Assembly: GCA_018714485.1 (NCBI GenBank)
Contig: DVNJ01000032.1
Coordinates: 4,135-68,134, forward strand
Direction: 5' to 3'
Source of the DNA: Candidatus Caccalectryoclostridium excrementigallinarum
Lineage (GTDB): Bacteria; Bacillota; Clostridia; Christensenellales; UBA3700
DNA: 64,000 nucleotides
In this document: piece by piece, positions 48,054-60,999 of the stretch
Numbering within the stretch: position 1 is the first letter of the stretch
How the letters are laid out: the number at the start of each line of letters is the position of its first letter
The notes under the pieces: generated by a model
Databases searched by the model: none
Seen by the model: only the letters and a program-made list of their open reading frames with translations
Told to the model about the DNA's origin: nothing
Position numbers and translations under genes: made by a program

Positions 48054-48913
48054 GAGTCAACGACTATATCGTCAAGGAGATCGACCGCATCTATAACGCG
48101 CGCGAATTTGACGCGCCCGTCAAGGTGCGCGGAAACAGGCATCAGCGTAAAATTCTCTATCATCTCGAGGACGCCCGCCTTTCGCTCATGCGCGAGCGGG
48201 AGAAGATAACAAAGCAGTTCGAATATACGACCGTCTCCGTCTCGGGGATAATCCACGACATAAAAACGCCCATGGCGCTCATCGCCGGCTATGCCGAATG
48301 CCTGCAAGACGGCGTGGGCGACAAGGACTATCTCAAGCTCATTTTGGAGACGATCGAGAAACTTCAGGGGATAGTTGAATCGGTCTCGCTGCCTAAGTCG
48401 TTCAACGCCCGCGACGACATCGACGTCAAGGAGTTCATCAACGGCAGACCTTATTTTTACGCCGTGTTCGACCGCTACCGCGAAATGGTCGAGGAGCGCG
48501 GCATCAAATATCTCATCGGCAGGCTCCCTAAGATCGCCGAATGGTTTTGCCGCAACAGCGCCGCCGTCGGTATGTATATCAACAAAAAGCTCATCGACAG
48601 AGTGGTCCAGAACATCATCACCAACGACCTGCGTTACACCCCCAAGGGCGGCACGATCCGCGTGATCTTCAGTAAGAGACGGCAATTTTTCTATATCCGC
48701 GTCAAGGACGACGGCTCGGGCATCAAAAAAGCCGATCTGCCCTTTATCTTCGAACGCGGCTTTAAGTCGGGCGCAGGCGGCAGTAAGGGCTTGGGACTTT
48801 ATATGGCGCAGGATATAATCAAGCGCCACGGCGGCGCCATAAGCGTGAAGAGCAAAGAAGGGAAGGGGACGGTCTTTACGATAAAGCTGCCGATAGTACC
48901 CGTTAAACGGTAA
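48050..48913 (+). CDS. histidine kinase without recognizable TM or sensor domain
   Basis: H-box SGIIHDIKTPM about 65 aa from the N-terminus, G1 DDGSGI, G2 GLGLYM. No hydrophobic helix. ATGA overlap with the response regulator gene. Confidence 0.85.
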   Translation: MRVNDYIVKEIDRIYNAREFDAPVKVRGNRHQRKILYHLEDARLSLMREREKITKQFEYTTVSVSGIIHDIKTPMALIAGYAECLQDGVGDKDYLKLILETIEKLQGIVESVSLPKSFNARDDIDVKEFINGRPYFYAVFDRYREMVEERGIKYLIGRLPKIAEWFCRNSAAVGMYINKKLIDRVVQNIITNDLRYTPKGGTIRVIFSKRRQFFYIRVKDDGSGIKKADLPFIFERGFKSGAGGSKGLGLYMAQDIIKRHGGAISVKSKEGKGTVFTIKLPIVPVKR

Positions 48914-49345
48914 TTGCCGGACAGGCGCTATGCGAGCACGCGATAGAGCGCGCCTTTACGCACATCTTTGGACGGCGAAGACTTGATAATACGGCAAGTA
49001 TTACCTGCGTCTTCGCCGTTCAAACCTGTACGAAAATGCATCGCTCTCTCACGCACTCTTATAGACGCCTGTCCGGCATAAGTGAAAGCAGTAAGTTAAC
49101 AAGATAAAGCTTGATAATACGATAAGTACTGTCTGCGGCACCTTTGTCCAAATGCGTACGCAAATCCCTCGTCCTTCTATGCACCCTTATAGACATATGT
49201 CCGGCATAAGTGAGAGATATATATGTGAGCGAGAGGTGAACAAGAGAAAGCTCTCGATAATACGGCAAGTATTACCTGCGTCTTCGCTGTCCAAACCTGT
49301 ACGCAAATGCATCTCTCTCCCACGCACCCTTAATAGCGCCTGCCC
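48912..49345. repeat. repeat family A: one inverted fragment plus three diverged tandem units (period about 128-143 bp)
   Basis: Units start with TTGATAATACGGCAAGTATTACCTGCG at 48983, 49111 and 49254. A fourth related copy is at 50243. GCCGGACAGGCG (48916) is inverted relative to CGCCTGTCCGGC (49066). Confidence 0.8.
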
Positions 49346-49589
49346 GGGCAGCGTGACGCTGCACCCCGATACGCTTCGTATTCACAAAAAGCAATGGCAA
49401 AGCATAGCTCTTTGCACAAATATTGTAAATGGATAAGAGAACATATCTTGCGTATAAAAGTGAAATGTTTGCTCATACAGCCGCAAAGCGGCGCTTCGCA
49501 AACGTTATGGCTGCCTGCGGCGCATTTACACAACGCTTTGCTTGCAACTTTGTTTAACTGCTTTTCGCACGACGCCACAAATCTCTGCA

Positions 49590-49995
49590 ACTCTTGATCT
49601 TCCTTCCTCCTCCCTCTCTCTATTTCTCTCATATTTTAATTACTTTCACTTCTCTCATCTTCTTGAATAACTCTCTCTTATATAATTACGTTTAGCCATA
49701 TTTTGGCTACAACACATTGAGAGACTTTTGCGGTTTTATTTCAACAGATATAACCGTGTGACAAATTAAGTGCAATAAAGCGAAGCAAAAGCGTTTTTGC
49801 GAGCGGTACCTCTAAAATGCGCCGTGCACATTTTCCGAACGAGTGCGACTTCTTCACCTTCCTTCCTCCTCCCTCTTCTCTTTTTCTCTCATTTCTTACT
49901 TTCTTTCACTTCTCTCATCTTCTTCAATAACTCTCACTTATATAATTACGTTTTAGCCACTTTTCGGCTATAAGATAAAGAGAGGTTTGCGCTTT
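49590..49995. repeat. repeat family B, array 1 (2 units): G-free polypyrimidine tract + TATATAATTACG + palindrome GTTT(T)AGCC-N7-GGCTAYAA
   Basis: Palindrome cores at 49693 and 49954 (261 bp apart). Only one G in 49597-49689. Same orientation as array 2. Confidence 0.85.
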
Positions 49996-50099
49996 AACTT
50001 TTTCGGAAGACGAGAGTAGAGCAGTGTCCGAGATCGCCGAGCGGAAAGGCTTGTTTTGCAGGGCAGAAAGCAGGGCGAAATGTAAAATTTTCACGGCGA

Positions 50100-50580
50100 G
50101 ATCGAGCGCGTGAAACAATATGTTCCACCCTCTTCCTCTTCCCCACACCCATTCTTCTTCTCCAAGCCAAGATGGCGCCGAAAGTGAATACTATAAGTCC
50201 GCCTCGGAGCGGCTCTTTTCGCTTCTTTTGCACAGCCGTCGTTTGACAATACCGCAAGAGTATTGCCTGCGCTCCGCCCGCACAAAATCATGCGAAAATT
50301 TCTCGCTCGAGGTGCGCGCAGTTCGGCTGAGCCGAACCGAACTTATATTATTCCCGTTCGGCTCGGAAGAAGAAGTAAAAGAAGAAGTAGACGTAGAAGT
50401 TGAAGTAGATAAGGTGGAATATTTGCGGCGTGAAACATTGTGTTCCACCCTCTTCCTCTTCCCCACACCCCTTCTTCTTCTCCAAGTAGATGTAGAAGAA
50501 GAAGTAAAAGAAGAAGAAAATGTAAAAGTAGAAGTTGAAGATGAAGTAGATATGGTAAAACGCCTGCGGCGAAAAAGCAA
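50100..50580. repeat. alternating polypyrimidine and polypurine tracts with duplicated units
   Basis: GTGAAACA(A/T)T(A/G)TGTTCCACCCTCTTCCTCTTCCCCACACCC..CTTCTTCTTCTCCAAG at 50110 and 50430. GAAGAAGAAGTAAAAGAAGAAG... purine tracts at about 50362 and 50490. 7-bp stem GGTGGAA/TTCCACC. Confidence 0.8.
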
Positions 50581-50594
50581 AAGTTCGGATAAAC

Positions 50595-50624
50595 TTGAAA
50601 GTGAGCTTTTGCGTTTGATATAAT
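50595..50624 (+). promoter_or_regulatory. orphan sigma-A promoter (TTGAAA-18-TATAAT with extended TG)
   Basis: TTGAAAgtgagcttttgcgttTGaTATAAT. No plausible CDS downstream before the convergent rluA-type gene. Confidence 0.45.
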
Positions 50625-50984
50625 GTTGTTGAACGGTTCGGAAGATGCGCTGCGCGCCGCAAAGAAGGCGTGTTAGACGAGGAAAGACGGCTTTTTATCG
50701 CAGGGAGCATAACACTACACTCAAAGTGTAATAAAGCGCGGCAAAACCACGCTTTTGCCAAGCGTTACCTTGAGCGGAACGACTGTTCCGCACGAAGCGA
50801 AGCGCAGGCGGGAAGAATGAATTTTTGCGGGTAAGGCGAGCGCGAGACATTGACACTCTACCGCAAAAAGAGAGAAAACCACGCCTCAAGCAATCGATCT
50901 CGCGGCGCAGGAGAGCGAAGCCGCGACGAGATAAAATCCGTTCATAGACGGAAAGTCGATTGCGAATGGCGGGGTTGTCGCTCA

Positions 50985-52715: not shown

Positions 52716-55700
52716 GCCTTTTTCACGCCGAGGGTGACCTTTTCACCGTTGACGTCCCATTCCTTGACAAGGTCGCAGCCCTCGACGCCGCGCTCGATAC
52801 TGTCGCAGAGCACGTCCGCTTTGACCGCGCCCGAGCTAAGCACCTTTTCCGCCCTGCCCGAGGCGAGATAGCGGATGTCGATGCGGTCGGTGACGTTATA
52901 TCCCGCCTCTTTGCGCATGGTCTGAAGCTTGGAGACCAGCTCGCGCGCCGTGCCCTCGTCGAGCAGTTCTTCGGAAAGCGTCGTGTCGAGCACTACGGTC
53001 ATGCCGCCGTCCGTCTCCATGGCGAACCCGCCCTTGTTGACAGGGGTGATCAAGAGGTCGTCCGCGGAAAATTCCACCTTTTCGCCGCCTATTTCGGCGA
53101 CATAGACGCCATTTTCCACGGCTTTTACTATCTCTTCGGGCTTTTGCACGCCCGCAAGATATTGCCTGATCGCGCCGATGAGCTTGCCGTACTTGGGACC
53201 GAGCGTTTTCAGCTGCGGCTTGATCTCATAGGAGATAAAGGCGGAGTCGTCGCTCACCCTCTCCACGCTCTTGACGTTGAGTTCGTCCGCGGCGAGCGCC
53301 AAAACGGCGGGGTCGGCGGGAGCCGTATCCGTCATGATATACATTTTCCCGAGCGGCTGACGGTTTTTGATGTTCACCTTATTGCGCGCCGCCCTGCCCA
53401 AAGCCACCGCCTTGAGCACGAGCTGCATATCCGCTTCGAGCGCCTTGTCGATATATTTTTCCTCGGCGGCGGGGAAGGAGCAAAGATGCACGCTTTCGGG
53501 CGCGTCGGGGAAGAAGTTGACCACGAGATTGCGGTACATCGCCTCGCTCATAAAGGGGACGAAGGGGGCGCAGACCTTGGAGAGGGTGACGAGCGTATGC
53601 CAGAGGGTGACATAAGCCGCCTTCTTGTCCTGACTCATCTCGCTGCCCCAATAGCGTTCCCTGCCGCGGCGCACATACCAGTTGGAAAGCTCGTCCACGA
53701 ACTCCTGAATGGCGCGCGCGCTCTCGGTGATCATATATTTGTCCAAGCACTCGTCCACATATTTGATAAGCGTGTTCAATCCCGAGAGCAGCCACTTATC
53801 CATGCCGCTCAAAGCGCAGTCCTCGAGCTTATACTTGCTCGGGTCGAACTTGTCTATCTCGGCATAGAGCACGAAAAAGGCATAGGTGTTCCAGAGCGTG
53901 CCCATGAACTTGCGCTGGGATTCGGAGACGTTGTCCGCGCTGAAACGGGTGGGGAGCCAGGGGGCGGAAGAGGAATAGAAATACCATCTCACCGCGTCCG
54001 CGCCCTGCTTGTCCAAAACGCTCCAAGGGTCGACGACGTTGCCCTTATGCTTGCTCATCTTGATCCCGTCCTTGTCGTTGACGTGACCCAAGACCACGCA
54101 GTTCTTGAAGGGCGCCCTGTCGAAAAGCAGGGTGGAGACGGCGAGCAAGGTATAAAACCAACCGCGCGTCTGATCCACCGCCTCGCTGATGAAGTCGGCG
54201 GGGAATTGGCTCTTGAAGAGCTGCTCGTTCTCGAAAGGATAATGGAACTGCGCGAAAGGCATGCTTCCCGAATCTCCCCAGCAGTCGAGGACTTCGGGGG
54301 TGCGGTGCATGGTCTTGCCGCAGACGGGGCACTTTATCGTCACCGAGTCGATATAGGGCTTGTGAAGTTCGATGTCGCCCGTCAAGCCGCCTAACTTTTT
54401 CAGCTCTTCCTTACTGCCCACGGCGTGAACGTGCCCGCATTCGCAGACCCAGAAAGGCAGCGGCGTGCCCCAATAACGCTCGCGGGAGATGCCCCAATCG
54501 ATGACGTTCTCCAAAAAGTTGCCCATTCTGCCCGTCCCTATCGAGGGCGGGATCCAATTCACGGAAGCGTTGTTTTTGAGCAGCTGCTCTTTCACGGCGG
54601 TCATCTTGATGAACCAGCTCGAGCGCGCGTAATAAAGCAGCGGCGTGTCGCAGCGCCAGCAGAAGGGATAGGAGTGCTCATAGAGCATGTCTTTGAACAG
54701 CAGCCCCTTCTCTTGCAGCAACATCATCACCGTCCTGTCGCCATCCTTGCAGAAGACGCCGTCCAGCTTTTCGTGCGTTCCCTTGACGAACCTGCCGCGC
54801 TCGTCCACCATTTGCAGGAAGGGAAGGTCGTATTTCCTGCCCACGTTCGCGTCGTCCTCGCCGAAAGCGGGCGCGATATGGACTATGCCCGTGCCGTCGG
54901 TGAGGGTGACATAGCCGTCGCAGGTGACGTAAAACGCCTTTTTCTTGCCCTCGTAGCAGTCAAAGAGCGGCTCGTATCCCGCAAATTCGTATTCCCTGCC
55001 CTTTTTCACGGACAGCGTTTCGTATTCTTCGAAGAATGAGGGCACGAGCGCCTCGGCGAGCACATAGACCTCGCCGCCACTCTTTATCTCGGCGTAATTT
55101 TCCTCGGGATTGACGCAGAGCGCGACGTTGGAAGGGAGCGTCCAGGGCGTGGTCGTCCAGGCGAGGAAGAAGCCCTCTCCCTCTTTGCGCCTGAACTTGG
55201 CGATGCAAGAGCGCTCCTTGACGTCCTTATAGCCCTGCGCGACTTCGTGCGAGCTGAGCGCCGTGCCGCAGCGGGGGCAATAGGGGACTATCTTGAAGCC
55301 CTTATAGATGAGCCCCTTGTCGAAAATGCTCTTGAGCGCCCACCAGACGGACTCGATATACTTGTCGTCATAGGTGATATAGGGATCGTCCATGTCCACC
55401 CAATAGCCCACGCGCTCGGACATGCGTTCCCATTCGTGCTTGTATTTCCAGACGCTTTCCTTGCATTTTTTGATGAAGGGCTCGACGCCGTATTTCTCTA
55501 TCTCCTGCTTGCCGTCTATGCCCAAAGACTTTTCCACTTCGAGCTCGACGGGCAGCCCGTGCGTGTCCCAACCGGCTTTGCGCAGGACGTGAAAGCCCTT
55601 CATGGTCTTGTAACGAGGAATGATGTCTTTCATCACGCGCGTCAGGATATGACCTATGTGCGGCTTGCCGTTGGCGGTCGGGGGACCGTCGTAAAAGGAG

Positions 55701-57210: not shown

Positions 57211-58236
57211 CTATTTTACCTGCTCTTCGAATTTATCGAAAACGGGCTTAACGCCGTCCGCGACGTCAAAATAGCCCTCGTGCGTGAGGCAGCTCAAAAG
57301 AGCTTCGCCGTCCTTCAAAAAAGCTATGTCCGCAAAGCTCACATAAGGTGCATAAGTTTCGTAAGCGTCATAGTGATACCTGTCGAATCGCTTGAAAGAC
57401 ATAAGGTATTCTTTGAGCTTTTGCGTGGGCTTGAGATAGACCCTAAGAACGTTCATGCCGTAATTTTCCGTCTCTTCCGTCCGATATGCCCCGCCCAAAA
57501 TTTCCGCGAAGCGCGCGTCGCTCTCCCCGCCGATATGAACATTTTCTTCGGCATGAAAACAGACGGTATCGCTCTCGGAAAAGAGATATTCAAGCTGAGA
57601 AGCGGAAAGTTTTTTCGCCCGTTCGTCCTCGGCGACGGCTTTATCGTAATCGTCCAAATACCCGCTCTTCACATACTCTTCCCAAATATCTATTTGATCG
57701 TAGATGCGATCCGAAGGCATCTCGTATTCGACGACGTCCGCCTCTTCTCCCGCCATCGCCTGCGCCAAATCGAAAAAGGGCATGACCTCGGGCGAAGTCC
57801 GTTCAAGATGATACAGCGTAGATTCCTGCATCAGTGCATGGTCGTTTATGAACGCGCCGTATTCACCCATGGCTTTTTGGCACGCCTCGCCGCTCTCTGC
57901 CTGCTTGAACATTTCCTGCACCTTGGCATACACTTCGCTTTGCATTTTTTTGCTCTTCTCTTGCTCGGAAAGCGCGGGATCGCTCATGATCTTTTCCGTC
58001 ATTTCCTCTTCACATTCCCCGATATGTGCGGTATAGCTCCGCCACTTTTGCATCAGGCGTTCCTGCTCTTTTTCAAAGGCGGCGCGCCTTTGTTCATACC
58101 CTTCAGACTCCAAAAGAGCCTTGATCTCCTGCAATCTCGCCAGCCTTTCCGCACCCGCCCGGCGAAATGTCTCGGCGGTATAGGGCTTTTCTCTGTCTAT
58201 TTCGTTTACCGTTGTTATAGTTATCAACTTTTCCAT
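57211..58236 (-). CDS. hypothetical acidic protein (341 aa)
   Basis: Long ORF with a GGTGAG RBS and its own promoter. No family recognised by eye. Confidence 0.7.
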   Translation of the reverse strand: MEKLITITTVNEIDREKPYTAETFRRAGAERLARLQEIKALLESEGYEQRRAAFEKEQERLMQKWRSYTAHIGECEEEMTEKIMSDPALSEQEKSKKMQSEVYAKVQEMFKQAESGEACQKAMGEYGAFINDHALMQESTLYHLERTSPEVMPFFDLAQAMAGEEADVVEYEMPSDRIYDQIDIWEEYVKSGYLDDYDKAVAEDERAKKLSASQLEYLFSESDTVCFHAEENVHIGGESDARFAEILGGAYRTEETENYGMNVLRVYLKPTQKLKEYLMSFKRFDRYHYDAYETYAPYVSFADIAFLKDGEALLSCLTHEGYFDVADGVKPVFDKFEEQVK

Positions 58237-58469: not shown

Positions 58470-60110
58470 GCGATATTTTCCCCTCTTCTTCCCTTCACAC
58501 TCTCTTCTCTTACCTTCTCTCCTCTCTCCTATCTCACTTCCACCCTCACACAACATATAGCTTATCCTTTAATTGCGCTTTAGCCACTTTTCGGCTATAA
58601 CACAAAAAGACATTTACATTCTTACTTAACTAAAATTCTTACACTTATCCCTTACCTTTTAACTGCCTCTTCATTCGATCCCCTCTTGCCCGCTCTCTCT
58701 TCCACTCTTCTTCCATTCTCTTTCTCTCTTCAACCCCTCTTCTCTTACCTTCTCTCCCCACCCTTACCCCCTCTTTTCTTTCTTTTTCTCAATAACGTCC
58801 GCTATAAATTCTGTTTTAGCCATTTTTCGGCTACAACATGTTAAGAAGCCTTGCGCTTTAATACGATAAATATAACGATATGCCAAGGATCATAAAACGG
58901 TTACGAGCAACATGCTTAACCCCTCAGCACAGCAACCTACTTGCAATTTTTTCTCTTTCGTCTTTCTCAATAACGTCCGCTATATAATTCCGTTTTAGCC
59001 ACTTTTCGGCTATAACATGTTAAGAAGCCTTGCGTTTTAATACGATAACTATAACAATACGGCAAAGATCTCAACCGACTGCAAACCATATCCGTTATCT
59101 CACACCCTGCAAACACACTATCCTTTTCCATTTACTTACCTAAATCTCTCTTCCACTCACTCTCTCTTTTCTGCTCCATTTCTTCCTTCTCTTATTGCTC
59201 ATTATATAATTGCGTTTTAGCCATTTTTCGGCTAACACATATTAAGAGCACTTGCGCTTTTTCATTTATCTGATACAGCCGTGCGACTATAAAAACCACC
59301 GCACTTCAATGCCGACACAGCCCGCCCTGCCGTAATAAAGCCGCACATCTCTCCCTCCTCTCTACTATCTCACTCTCAATCTTACACTACATACCGCTTA
59401 TCTTTTAATTACGTTTTAGCCATTTTTCGGCTATAACACAATGAGAAGCCTTTAGCTTTAATGCGACACATATAACGACATGATAAAGATCTCAACCGGC
59501 TGCAAACTAAGTTGACAACCTCGCGGCTTCGCGGCTAACCAACGCCAACCTCTCCCCTTACCTACTTCAACTCCCCCTTACCTTCCCCTTCTCTTCCTCT
59601 CCTCTTACCTTCCCCTTCACTTTACCCCCATGCCCCCTCTTCCACCCTACTCTCTCATTCCTTCACTTATTGCTCATTATATAATTACGTTTTAGCCATT
59701 TTTCGGCTATAACAAAAAGAAGACTTGCGTTTCAACACGATAACTATTAAAATGAGAGCAAAAGCGTTGTGGATAATATTCCGCCGCTCATATATCGCTC
59801 ACACGTTGTAATACTCATTAACATACACCGCCCCGCACTACACGCCGCCTTTCTATCTCGCTCTCCCCTTCACACTCTCTCCTCTCCTTCCATCTCTTAA
59901 TGCTCATAATATAATACTGTTTTAGCCACTTTTCGGCTATTGACCAAAATAGACTCACATGTTTCATCCTATCTCTCCGTTTCATTATCTTCTCTACCCC
60001 CTCAACCCTTTCCCTCTTTTGCCTTCCCTTCACTTTTCCCCGCCCCTCTCCCTCCCTCTCTACTGCTCATAATATAATACTGTTTTAGCCATATTTCGGC
60101 TATCAATTAT
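58470..60110. repeat. repeat family B, array 2 (8 units)
   Basis: Palindrome cores (TAGCC) at 58581, 58817, 58996, 59218, 59417, 59693, 59923 and 60086. Each is preceded by a G-depleted C/T tract (2 G in 59545-59688) and an AT box. No ORF of 60 aa or more is credible. Confidence 0.9.
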
Positions 60111-60159: not shown

Positions 60160-60197
60160 CGAAATAAAAATAACGGACACGAAAGCTACCCGTTATT
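60160..60197 (-). terminator. intrinsic terminator downstream of the small-protein genes
   Basis: Minus strand reads AATAACGG-N13-CCGTTATT followed by TTTTATTT. Confidence 0.45.
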
Positions 60198-60333
60198 GCG
60201 CATGGACTTATTATCCGGTCGGGATCCCCGACGCCGCCTTATCATTATTATGCGAGAGATCGCACCAAGTCAGCCGCCGTTACTGCGCGAGTTTTTCGCA
60301 AGCAAAGCGGCGGCAGACAATTTGACGCGGGCG

Positions 60334-60534
60334 CTATTCGGGGAAAAAGCGTTCGGGAAAGGTCAGATCTTCCGCCTCGGCGGGCGGCTTTACCTTTGCA
60401 CTTTCGCGTTTTTCGCCCCGATCGCCGCGCATAGCCTGCAAGAGCGCGGGCAGCGCGGACATATCTCCGCCTGCGGCGCGCATGATCTTCTCCGCGTCGC
60501 CGCCCATCATTTTCAACAAATCTTCCGTCCTCAT
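60334..60534 (-). CDS. hypothetical small protein (66 aa)
   Basis: ORF only, with a weak RBS. Co-oriented with the neighbouring small gene. Confidence 0.35.
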   Translation of the reverse strand: MRTEDLLKMMGGDAEKIMRAAGGDMSALPALLQAMRGDRGEKRESAKVKPPAEAEDLTFPERFFPE

Positions 60535-60597
60535 TTTCTTTTCAAGTCAAAGCCCGCATTGCGCCGCAAACCGCGTTCGGCGTGCGGCAACGCTCTT

Positions 60598-60999
60598 TCA
60601 CTCCCCTCTCTTCAAGCCCGAGATCAGCTCTTTAAGCCGCGCGCGCTGGACATCGTTCAAAAGCGGCGCCGCAGAAGAGTAAAAATCGTCGAGCGCCTTG
60701 TCGTCCAACTCTCCCGCCGCACGAGAACGCGCCGCCTGCACCATCATCTCCTGCATCAACTTCTCCTGCGGCATGCCCGCATAGCGCGCCATCGCGCTCT
60801 CAAAACTCTCGCCGCCCGAACTACCCGACATATTTGAGCCGTTTGAGCCCTTCCCGTTCGCGCCGACACCGCCCGCGCCGCCTTTATCGAAGTTTGCGTT
60901 CGCGCCGCTTTCATGGGTGCCGCTCCCGCCCGCATTGCCGCGCCAAATATCCGTGCTCTCAAAGCTTCCCGAGCGCTCGGAAAATTTCGGTTTTTTCAT
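60598..60999 (-). CDS. hypothetical protein with G/S/N-rich N-terminal half
   Basis: GGGAGGGAAG RBS directly upstream of the ATG. Helical C-terminal half. Confidence 0.6.
   Translation of the reverse strand: MKKPKFSERSGSFESTDIWRGNAGGSGTHESGANANFDKGGAGGVGANGKGSNGSNMSGSSGGESFESAMARYAGMPQEKLMQEMMVQAARSRAAGELDDKALDDFYSSAAPLLNDVQRARLKELISGLKRGE

Follow-up and report, generated by a model that had tools for sequence, protein, structure and literature searches.

What are the two long C/T tracts, almost free of guanine and each followed by a short palindrome, that lie behind a two-component kinase gene of the gut bacterium Candidatus Caccalectryoclostridium excrementigallinarum, and do they serve the operon that they follow? 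The stretch of DNA analysed here, referred to as the window, is 64,000 nucleotides (nt) long and corresponds to C28:4135-68134, part of one contig of a 1.43-Mb, 33-contig, 55% G+C genome assembly (G000) with a completeness of 96%. The two units, which we call array 1, belong to a non-coding repeat family that is restricted to one gut Clostridia species. Judging by its locus in other strains and in sister species, array 1 itself is repeat DNA that was inserted in this lineage and makes up one part of a larger mosaic; most likely, it is not a regulator of the two-component system and has no dedicated function. We tentatively read it as a species-specific composite repeat with fast turnover, which would carry a protein-recognised core, spread by recombination and form a one-way, Rho-dependent stop behind the kinase operon.

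Each unit consists of a ~90-nt C/T tract, the box ATTATATAAT and the motif GTTT(T)AGCC-N7-GGCTA, in that order (Table 1). The preliminary description of the locus, made from the letters of the window, placed two such units 261 bp apart and noted that their tracts hold almost no G, and our reading of the sequence at 49300-50300 bore this out: the hairpins are spaced by 261 bp, both units share one orientation, and the tracts contain one G in 83 nt and none in 90 nt. Stretches of 90 nt with two or fewer G are confined to array 1 and a second array, array 2, in a window that is 28% G overall. The motif TTTAGCC-N7-GGCTA is found ten times in the window, always on the + strand (two in array 1, eight at 58.6-60.1 kb), against an expectation of 0.00 from 100 shuffles of the window. 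From the polypyrimidine tract through the hairpin, units 1 and 2 are ~90% alike; 3′ of the hairpin they diverge. The tail of unit 1 holds two weak hairpins, one of which (GCAAAAACGCTTTTGC with TTCGCTTTATT) is terminator-like on the - strand only and the other (AAAATG..CATTTT) on both strands, and the tail as a whole folds no better than shuffled sequence on either strand (z = +1.2 and +0.1).

How far does this repeat reach? A covariance model of the unit retrieves 20 of 20 copies in the studied genome at 57-90 bits: C28 carries 2 + 8 of them, C14 three, C18 another three at its start, C9 two at its end, and C26 and C33 a single one apiece. Because several of these lie at contig ends, the true number must be higher than 20. 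For comparison among strains, 20 long loci from other conspecific assemblies were collected through exact-protein look-ups, 10 around rluA and 10 around the response regulator; two of them, L218 and L192, come from one common sample and are each 99.9% identical to the studied genome. Together with the studied genome these loci supplied 159 distinct units, which were aligned by anchoring on the hairpin. Outside the species the picture is empty. A pattern search found no units in 40 relatives, neither BLAST nor the covariance model found any in 73 other genomes of the host's family, the phage and plasmid collections held no copy, and the strict pattern had no match in the JGI metagenomes. A looser pattern run over genome contigs returned, among the matches listed, single chance matches only. 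Viral matches to the pattern were rejected as homologues, being a conserved coding motif of one phage gene (which we take from its peptide to be a ribonucleotide reductase) plus chance matches. Long polypyrimidine tracts are themselves nearly unique to the studied genome among 30 relatives; those seen in the relative G018 were set aside as either coding or belonging to an unrelated intergenic repeat. No Rfam family matches the units at gathering or E-value thresholds, and the only Rfam matches nearby are chance, microRNA-like ones to a hairpin at 50.4-50.5 kb. The possibility raised earlier, that the units belong to a known repeat family, thus finds no family to claim them in Rfam or in the phage and plasmid collections.

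Conservation within the family is concentrated in a short segment. Across the 159 units, information content is high only from about -11 to +19 (1.6-2 bits from about -9 to +19), moderate to about +45 and near zero beyond, and the high-information positions read T.TAAT..nG, TTTAGCC, A..TT.. and GGCTA. A core of ~38 bp, TAAT-N-GTTTTAGCC-N7-GGCTA, is common to all units. From -70 to -20 the sequence is variable and the composition is constant, with 79-86% pyrimidine and 2-3% G. The palindrome had been drawn initially as two arms of nine bases around a 7-bp spacer; its inner five pairs, TAGCC/GGCTA, are indeed kept, around a spacer that is variable and asymmetric, but the outer arms are not kept paired, the right one varying freely (GGCTATTGC, GGCTACAAC and similar variants). 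No compensatory stem changes occur among the 159 units, RNAalifold returned a 5-bp stem or nothing on sets of 20 and 156 units, a candidate second helix in the tail paired no better than column shuffles, and tails folded no better than shuffled sequence on either strand. Stem variants that stay G-U paired number eight on the + strand versus three on the - strand. Since the short palindrome is invariant, its flank is conserved on one side only and covariation is lacking, the core is probably kept through sequence recognition by a protein, not as structured RNA. Owing to indels, a comparison of neighbouring with distant units by ungapped identity gave no information.

The spacer in which array 1 lies is itself an insertion of this lineage. 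In three sister species the gap between kinase and fba is ~0-250 bp (from adjacent genes to ~250 bp), and in 10 strains of the host species it measures 0.9-3.6 kb; because the gap is nearly empty in the sister species, the whole mosaic that fills it must be new DNA in the host species. Besides the units and alternating C/T and A/G tracts, this mosaic holds the modules that separate the kinase stop from unit 1 (Table 1), with copies on C4, C14, C22, C26, C30 and C33; among them is a ~250-bp module that carries a terminator-like hairpin on the - strand (49397-49415). Modules of the mosaic recur over ~15 contigs.

Turnover of the units is seen wherever strains can be compared. Unit number varies by strain from 4 to 14 at array 2 and from 4 to 12 at a large array on the rluA side, unit content differs as well, and spacing runs from 154 to 1378 bp (median 223), with all copies within an array sharing one orientation. 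The tpi-gpmI spacer (C33:33411-34727) measures 1316 bp in two strains, that of the studied genome included, against 639 bp in another, a difference made up of four separate presence/absence blocks, one of which (~206 bp) carries the single unit of this spacer. In the filled/empty pair L204 versus L208, the ~206-bp indel has no obvious inverted ends or duplication of the kind that mark a MITE; its borders lie inside other repeat modules, are not precisely placeable and do not coincide with the hairpin. The same spacer contains several terminator-like hairpins, all in the direction of the genes, and tpi has a strong terminator of its own, as gpmI has a promoter of its own (TTGACT-17-TGaTAAAAT). 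At array 2 of another strain (L195:1445-2841), a TIR-domain gene with its own TTGACA-17-TGnTAGAAT promoter lies inside the array, and the ~150-nt leader of a 341-amino acid (aa) gene is duplicated ahead of it. On either side of this TIR gene stands the same ~75-bp stretch of one unit subtype, duplicated in direct orientation and starting at the hairpin, which would be the expected trace of a crossover in the conserved core, whether homologous or site-specific.

Does array 1 lie where the contig places it? It had been described as occupying a convergent gap between the kinase and an rluA-type gene, and this context is probably an artefact of the contig: in 10 of 10 other assemblies the response regulator/kinase operon is followed by a gene-poor spacer and then by fba-dnaI-dnaD-like-feoAB, with fba on the strand of the kinase. 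None of the 10 rluA-side assemblies continues into the kinase spacer; beyond rluA they hold defence genes, an integrase island, the large 4-12-unit array and a prophage packaging module. L218 tracks C28 to position 54788 of the contig (window 50654), inserts 1.4 kb that are absent from the studied genome and then enters C25, and L192, which tracks C28 from the opposite flank, departs at 54865 (window 50731) to enter C9 and C18. The crossing point falls within a ~340-bp module that is dispersed on many contigs; over 85 bp of it, C28 and C9 are identical. GC skew on C28 switches from + to - exactly at the join, and in the ten other assemblies it is positive on either side of the spacer. Because the 20 other assemblies separate the two sides and the skew flips at the join, C28 is probably misjoined at this point or carries a strain-specific inversion, which affects synteny and origin/terminus calls made on this metagenome-assembled genome. 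A replication terminus with a dif site was considered for the flip, the core having a loose likeness to recombinase sites, and rejected, as the flip coincides with the departure from the other assemblies, whose skew is positive across their spacer; no convincing dif-like site was found in the genome. Two observations adjoin this one. Just before the join, at 50595-50624, lies a near-consensus promoter (TTGAAA-18-TATAAT with TG) that faces a 172-aa open reading frame (ORF) and fba in L218 and the 3′ end of rluA on the studied contig. The sole - to + switch of GC skew in the assembly is found at ~70-80 kb of C9, whereas dnaA is on C13 (C13:31357-31848); this indicates either an origin away from dnaA or another rearrangement or misjoin, on C9.

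The array as such is genuine, in answer to the earlier concern that it might be an assembly artefact, because the independent assembly L218 repeats both units, 261 bp apart and behind the same kinase, and because units follow the kinase in 9 of 10 other assemblies, with one to three in each. Only L214 has none, so that the kinase spacer ranges from 0 to 3 units across strains, always in + orientation. In eight of the nine unit-bearing assemblies the last unit bears the tail of unit 2 or a close variant, a tail type that is also present on the rluA side in other strains. The likeness to the eight units of array 2 that had been pointed out holds for architecture and for orientation on the contig, but array 1 is opposite to array 2 once gene direction and skew are taken as the reference.

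What would such units do to a transcript? The RNA that Rho binds best is unpaired, rich in C and poor in G over some 70-80 nt. The + strand RNA of each unit offers 80-110 nt with ~40% C and 1-2% G, predicted to be unpaired, beyond which lie an A/U-rich segment and a small hairpin; the - strand RNA is almost without C. Both tracts of array 1 are predicted to be unpaired as + strand RNA, that of unit 1 fully so, the + strand is the sense strand for the kinase operon and fba, and a rho gene is present in the genome. As no intrinsic terminator was found on the + strand between the kinase stop (48913) and the promoter at 50595-50624, the two tracts are the best candidates to end the transcripts of the kinase operon. 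Read-out from this operon would gain ~90 nt of unpaired, C-rich, G-free RNA, a near-ideal loading site for Rho, and the units would probably end it ahead of the next promoter. In the opposite direction the tract would be C-free and offer Rho no place to load, making each unit a one-way block. If true, a repeat that is unseen by Rho one way and a strong loading site the other would have its settling place and orientation governed by this difference. Among the six loci, array 1 alone has the pyrimidine strand as sense strand of the flanking genes; for array 2, the large array and the units on C14, C26 and C33 it is the purine strand, and a split of five to one is not significant.

If array 1 is a composite repeat of this kind, a mosaic-repeat system would have filled the intergenic gaps of this Christensenellales-like gut species, with units being gained, lost, tandemly duplicated and shuffled by recombination, mostly within the shared ~38-bp core. 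It would then present a clean case of a small gut-bacterial genome that repeat DNA has invaded within a single species, in which gaps between genes, once almost absent, expanded to several kb and repeats break metagenome assemblies and cause misjoins. Several observations weigh against this account. Neither a transposase nor terminal inverted repeats or target duplications were found, and the assembly holds no tyrosine recombinase, though this is seemingly an assembly gap. The conservation of both core and composition across divergent copies could equally point to a role in the cell, for instance as RNA genes or regulator sites, and the arrays hold their position across strains, occupying several kb of a small genome. 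With regard to termination, L214 is without units behind the kinase and the units are therefore dispensable for ending the kinase operon; the purine strand is sense at five of six loci, and Rho termination of sense transcripts is therefore not the general role of the family.

Table 1. Coordinates of array 1 and of associated features in the window.
Feature	Position	Strand	Remarks
Mosaic modules, kinase stop to unit 1	48912-49596		Three 'family A' repeats, then the ~250-bp module; repeat family D6
Unit 1 polypyrimidine tract	49597-49679	+	83 nt: 28 C, 41 T, 13 A, 1 G
Unit 1 AT box TTATATAATTA	49679-49689	Both strands alike	TATAAT at 49681-49686; self-complementary core; from the conservation profile
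Unit 1 hairpin core GTTTAGCC-ATATTTT-GGCTACAAC	49690-49713	+	Consensus minus one T; GTTTAGCC at 49690-49697, loop ATATTTT, GGCTA at 49705-49709; covariance-model match of 70.3 bits
Unit 1 'type B' tail	49714-49849	+	Common to dispersed single units on C14, C26 and C33
Unit 2 polypyrimidine tract	49850-49939	+	90 nt: 34 C, 46 T, 10 A, 0 G
Unit 2 AT box	49940-49949		TATAAT at 49941-49946
Unit 2 hairpin core GTTTTAGCC-ACTTTTC-GGCTATAAG	49950-49974	+	GTTTTAGCC at 49950-49958, loop ACTTTTC, GGCTA at 49966-49970; covariance-model match of 73.7 bits
Unit 2 tail (taagataaagagaggtttgcgctttaac...)	49975-50105	+	Unit retained here in most strains
Join of kinase-side and rluA-side sequence (probable misjoin or strain-specific inversion)	50654-50731 (C28:54788-54865)		From comparison with L218 and L192 and from GC skew
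Array 2	58470-60110	+	Eight units of the same repeat family

The AT box invites the alternative that the units are small RNA genes, in either direction. The box ATTATATAAT is self-complementary and TATAAT can be read on both strands, in ~35% of units. A promoter matrix was built from 56 genes of the studied genome in which six bases separate a -10 box from the start codon; in these promoters a TTGaca is clear at -35 and TGn is frequent, and the units have neither element on either strand. Median matrix scores are 15.5 for real promoters, 10.7 and 8.6 for the + and - strands of the units and 6.9 for shuffled units. A(-11) and T(-7), on which a -10 element depends most, are less conserved than any other position of the box on either strand. 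Promoter activity of some units is possible and would not be the reason why the core is conserved. On the - strand, the units could be tandem genes for polypurine non-coding RNAs, with the AT box as -10 element, the hairpin and tail as upstream control and a C-free, G/A-rich transcript, which we consider unlikely. A - strand TATAAT in 55 of 159 units with a purine ~7 nt downstream, an AT-rich upstream side formed by the tail, and a purine strand that is co-directional with the next gene at five of six loci all agree with it, as does the - strand order in type B units such as unit 1, which resembles a complete transcription unit: terminator-like hairpins upstream, the purine tract, and a module with a hairpin plus T-run (49415-49397) at its end. 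Against it, the units lack a -35 and a TG, unlike the promoters of their own genome, and their - strand score lies near that of shuffled units; T(-7) is poorly conserved on this strand, and a subfamily with the box CCTTTAATT has no usable hexamer (TANNNT) there. The predicted transcript is unstructured, no terminators separate the units of array 2 or the large arrays on either strand (weak - strand hairpins occur in type B tails only), and the genes behind units, namely the 341-aa gene, a TIR gene and gpmI, use canonical promoters of their own. As the many GGA and AG repeats of the - strand would suit a sponge RNA, whose usual purine-rich form partners with Hfq or CsrA, this variant was considered too and dropped, both genes being absent from the genome. 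Reading the + strand instead, with the TATAAT box driving a small RNA made of hairpin and tail that Rho ends in the C/T tract of the next unit, is improbable in spite of the better box scores on this strand (90th percentile 17), the conserved tail (+20 to +45) that would be transcribed, the excess of G-U-tolerant stem variants and the presence of Rho. The -35 region would be pure C/T, the start a pyrimidine, and A(-11) varies, with TTTAAT in several units; isolated units have the polypyrimidine tract upstream of the box, which is the wrong side of such a gene, and the tail shows no structure or covariation beyond its composition.

A different set of alternatives takes the units as DNA sites. 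They may form an array for a sequence-specific protein such as a recombinase, a nucleoid or partition protein or a repressor, serving as recombination or landing sites or as a titrating sink. The arms do not vary, the asymmetric 7-bp spacer between them does and the flank is conserved on one side only, which favours this idea; the lack of compensatory changes fits sequence recognition over a fold, and the arrays border hypervariable islands (restriction-modification, TIR, WYL, integrases, prophage). The TIR gene lies between unit duplications that start at the hairpin, and 7 of 7 other genomes of the genus carry 2-8 tyrosine recombinases; a search for Phage_integrase (PF00589) in the studied assembly found none, not even of the Xer type, which is probably an assembly gap, perhaps of genes that adjoin repeats. 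We nevertheless regard the site-array explanation as distinctly unlikely, since no gene for a recombinase or binding protein consistently adjoins the arrays, the tpi-gpmI indel boundaries are off the hairpin, the pyrimidine tract goes unexplained, and breakpoints inside the core are equally expected from homologous recombination between divergent units. An extension of this idea, in which the arrays would be integron-like platforms for gene capture, with the core as crossover site of a candidate recombinase, defence genes held between units and the tracts as one-way Rho barriers that shield captured genes from antisense and read-in transcription, is speculative and very improbable. It shares with integron attC sites the direct arrays of imperfect palindromes with accessory or defence genes between or beside them (TIR, L195), but no integrase adjoins the arrays, most 'cassettes' are 150-400 bp without a gene and the hairpin is far shorter than attC. 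Least probable of all, and close to refuted, is a CRISPR-related element, either a degenerate array or solitary repeats acting as RNA decoys against CRISPR. On the - strand the hairpin reads ..AGCC-GAAAAAT-GGCTAAAAC, a shape that may resemble some class 2 CRISPR repeats. The spacing of the units is irregular and the sequences between them are mutually related and not unique spacers; searches of the genome found neither Cas1 nor CRISPR arrays or CRISPR-like periodic repeats, and the motif was not found in the relatives or in the phage and plasmid collections searched.

Among described elements, the composite repeat that we favour belongs to a known kind, the modular intergenic repeat, and the architecture of its units appears to be new. 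We know of no described family in which a G-free pyrimidine tract (~50-110 nt), an AT box and a short, invariant hairpin come together. The units resemble tyrosine-recombinase core sites in having inverted arms around a 6-8-bp spacer (TAGCC-N7-GGCTA) and differ from them in that the assembly has no cognate PF00589 gene and the indel borders are off the hairpin. Like natural rut sites such as lambda tR1, they present a C-rich, G-poor, unpaired + strand of 80-110 nt in a genome with rho; natural rut sites, however, are not repeat families with an invariant hairpin, and the tract of the units is antisense at five of six loci. The arrays of sibling small RNAs, NsiR1 of Nostoc and LhrC1-5 of Listeria, share the head-to-tail arrangement of units of a few hundred bp and a fixed -10-like box. 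Those genes have recognisable promoters, an intrinsic terminator per unit and conservation across species, whereas the units performed weakly in the promoter test on both strands and their large arrays are without terminators. Close parallels are also the modular mosaic repeats of intergenic regions, BOX of Streptococcus pneumoniae (boxA-boxB(n)-boxC) and the enterobacterial BIMEs (PMC2817692, PMC3184786). BOX and BIMEs share with the units a species-restricted, non-coding, intergenic occurrence, a fixed order of modules and a hairpin-forming core, together with variable copy number, some modules in tandem and an ability to affect transcription of neighbours. The units depart from both in forming direct arrays of up to 14 copies with a period of ~220 bp, and from REP/BIME elements in having no alternating orientation, no GTAG head and no RAYT (Y1) transposase, with a 5-bp stem as the only part of the hairpin conserved; a link to REP/RAYT or IS200 elements was dropped, as Y1_Tnp was not found in the studied genome, the assembly of which is 96% complete.

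The arrays border the most variable parts of their loci and thereby mark hot spots of defence-gene and prophage swapping, so that whatever recognises the core may bear on island turnover. The island beside rluA (700-9000 bp beyond rluA in L192-L201; in the window, the side below 51081) varies in content by strain. One variant holds a T5orf172/ResIII and Eco57I-like system with an MmeI-type methylase and a helix-turn-helix (HTH) controller, and others combine an MspI restriction system with GmrSD or a pair of integrases with a PemK toxin, or have no such genes at all. TIR and WYL/UDG genes are likewise found among the neighbours of arrays. By array 2 lies an acidic ORF of 341 aa (57211-58236), which matches nothing in Pfam or PHROG and for which the seven other genomes of the genus gave no homologue. 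A + strand ORF of 213 aa (60196-60837) is probably not a gene; other assemblies call genes of 58-68 aa and 133-143 aa there, on the opposite strand.

Following the rluA island, the large unit array leads into the prophage packaging module, with a terminase and a P22-type portal. The first gene of the prophage encodes a 157-aa protein with weak similarity to late activators of phages or to sigma factors. Two small proteins are encoded between the large array and the terminase gene, one at C18:1255-1728 (equivalent to L198:15641-16114) and one by the 81-aa gene that follows; both give weak matches to families of phage transcription activators and sigma-factor region 4 (E about 1e-3 to 4e-6) and are likely late-gene regulators of the prophage.

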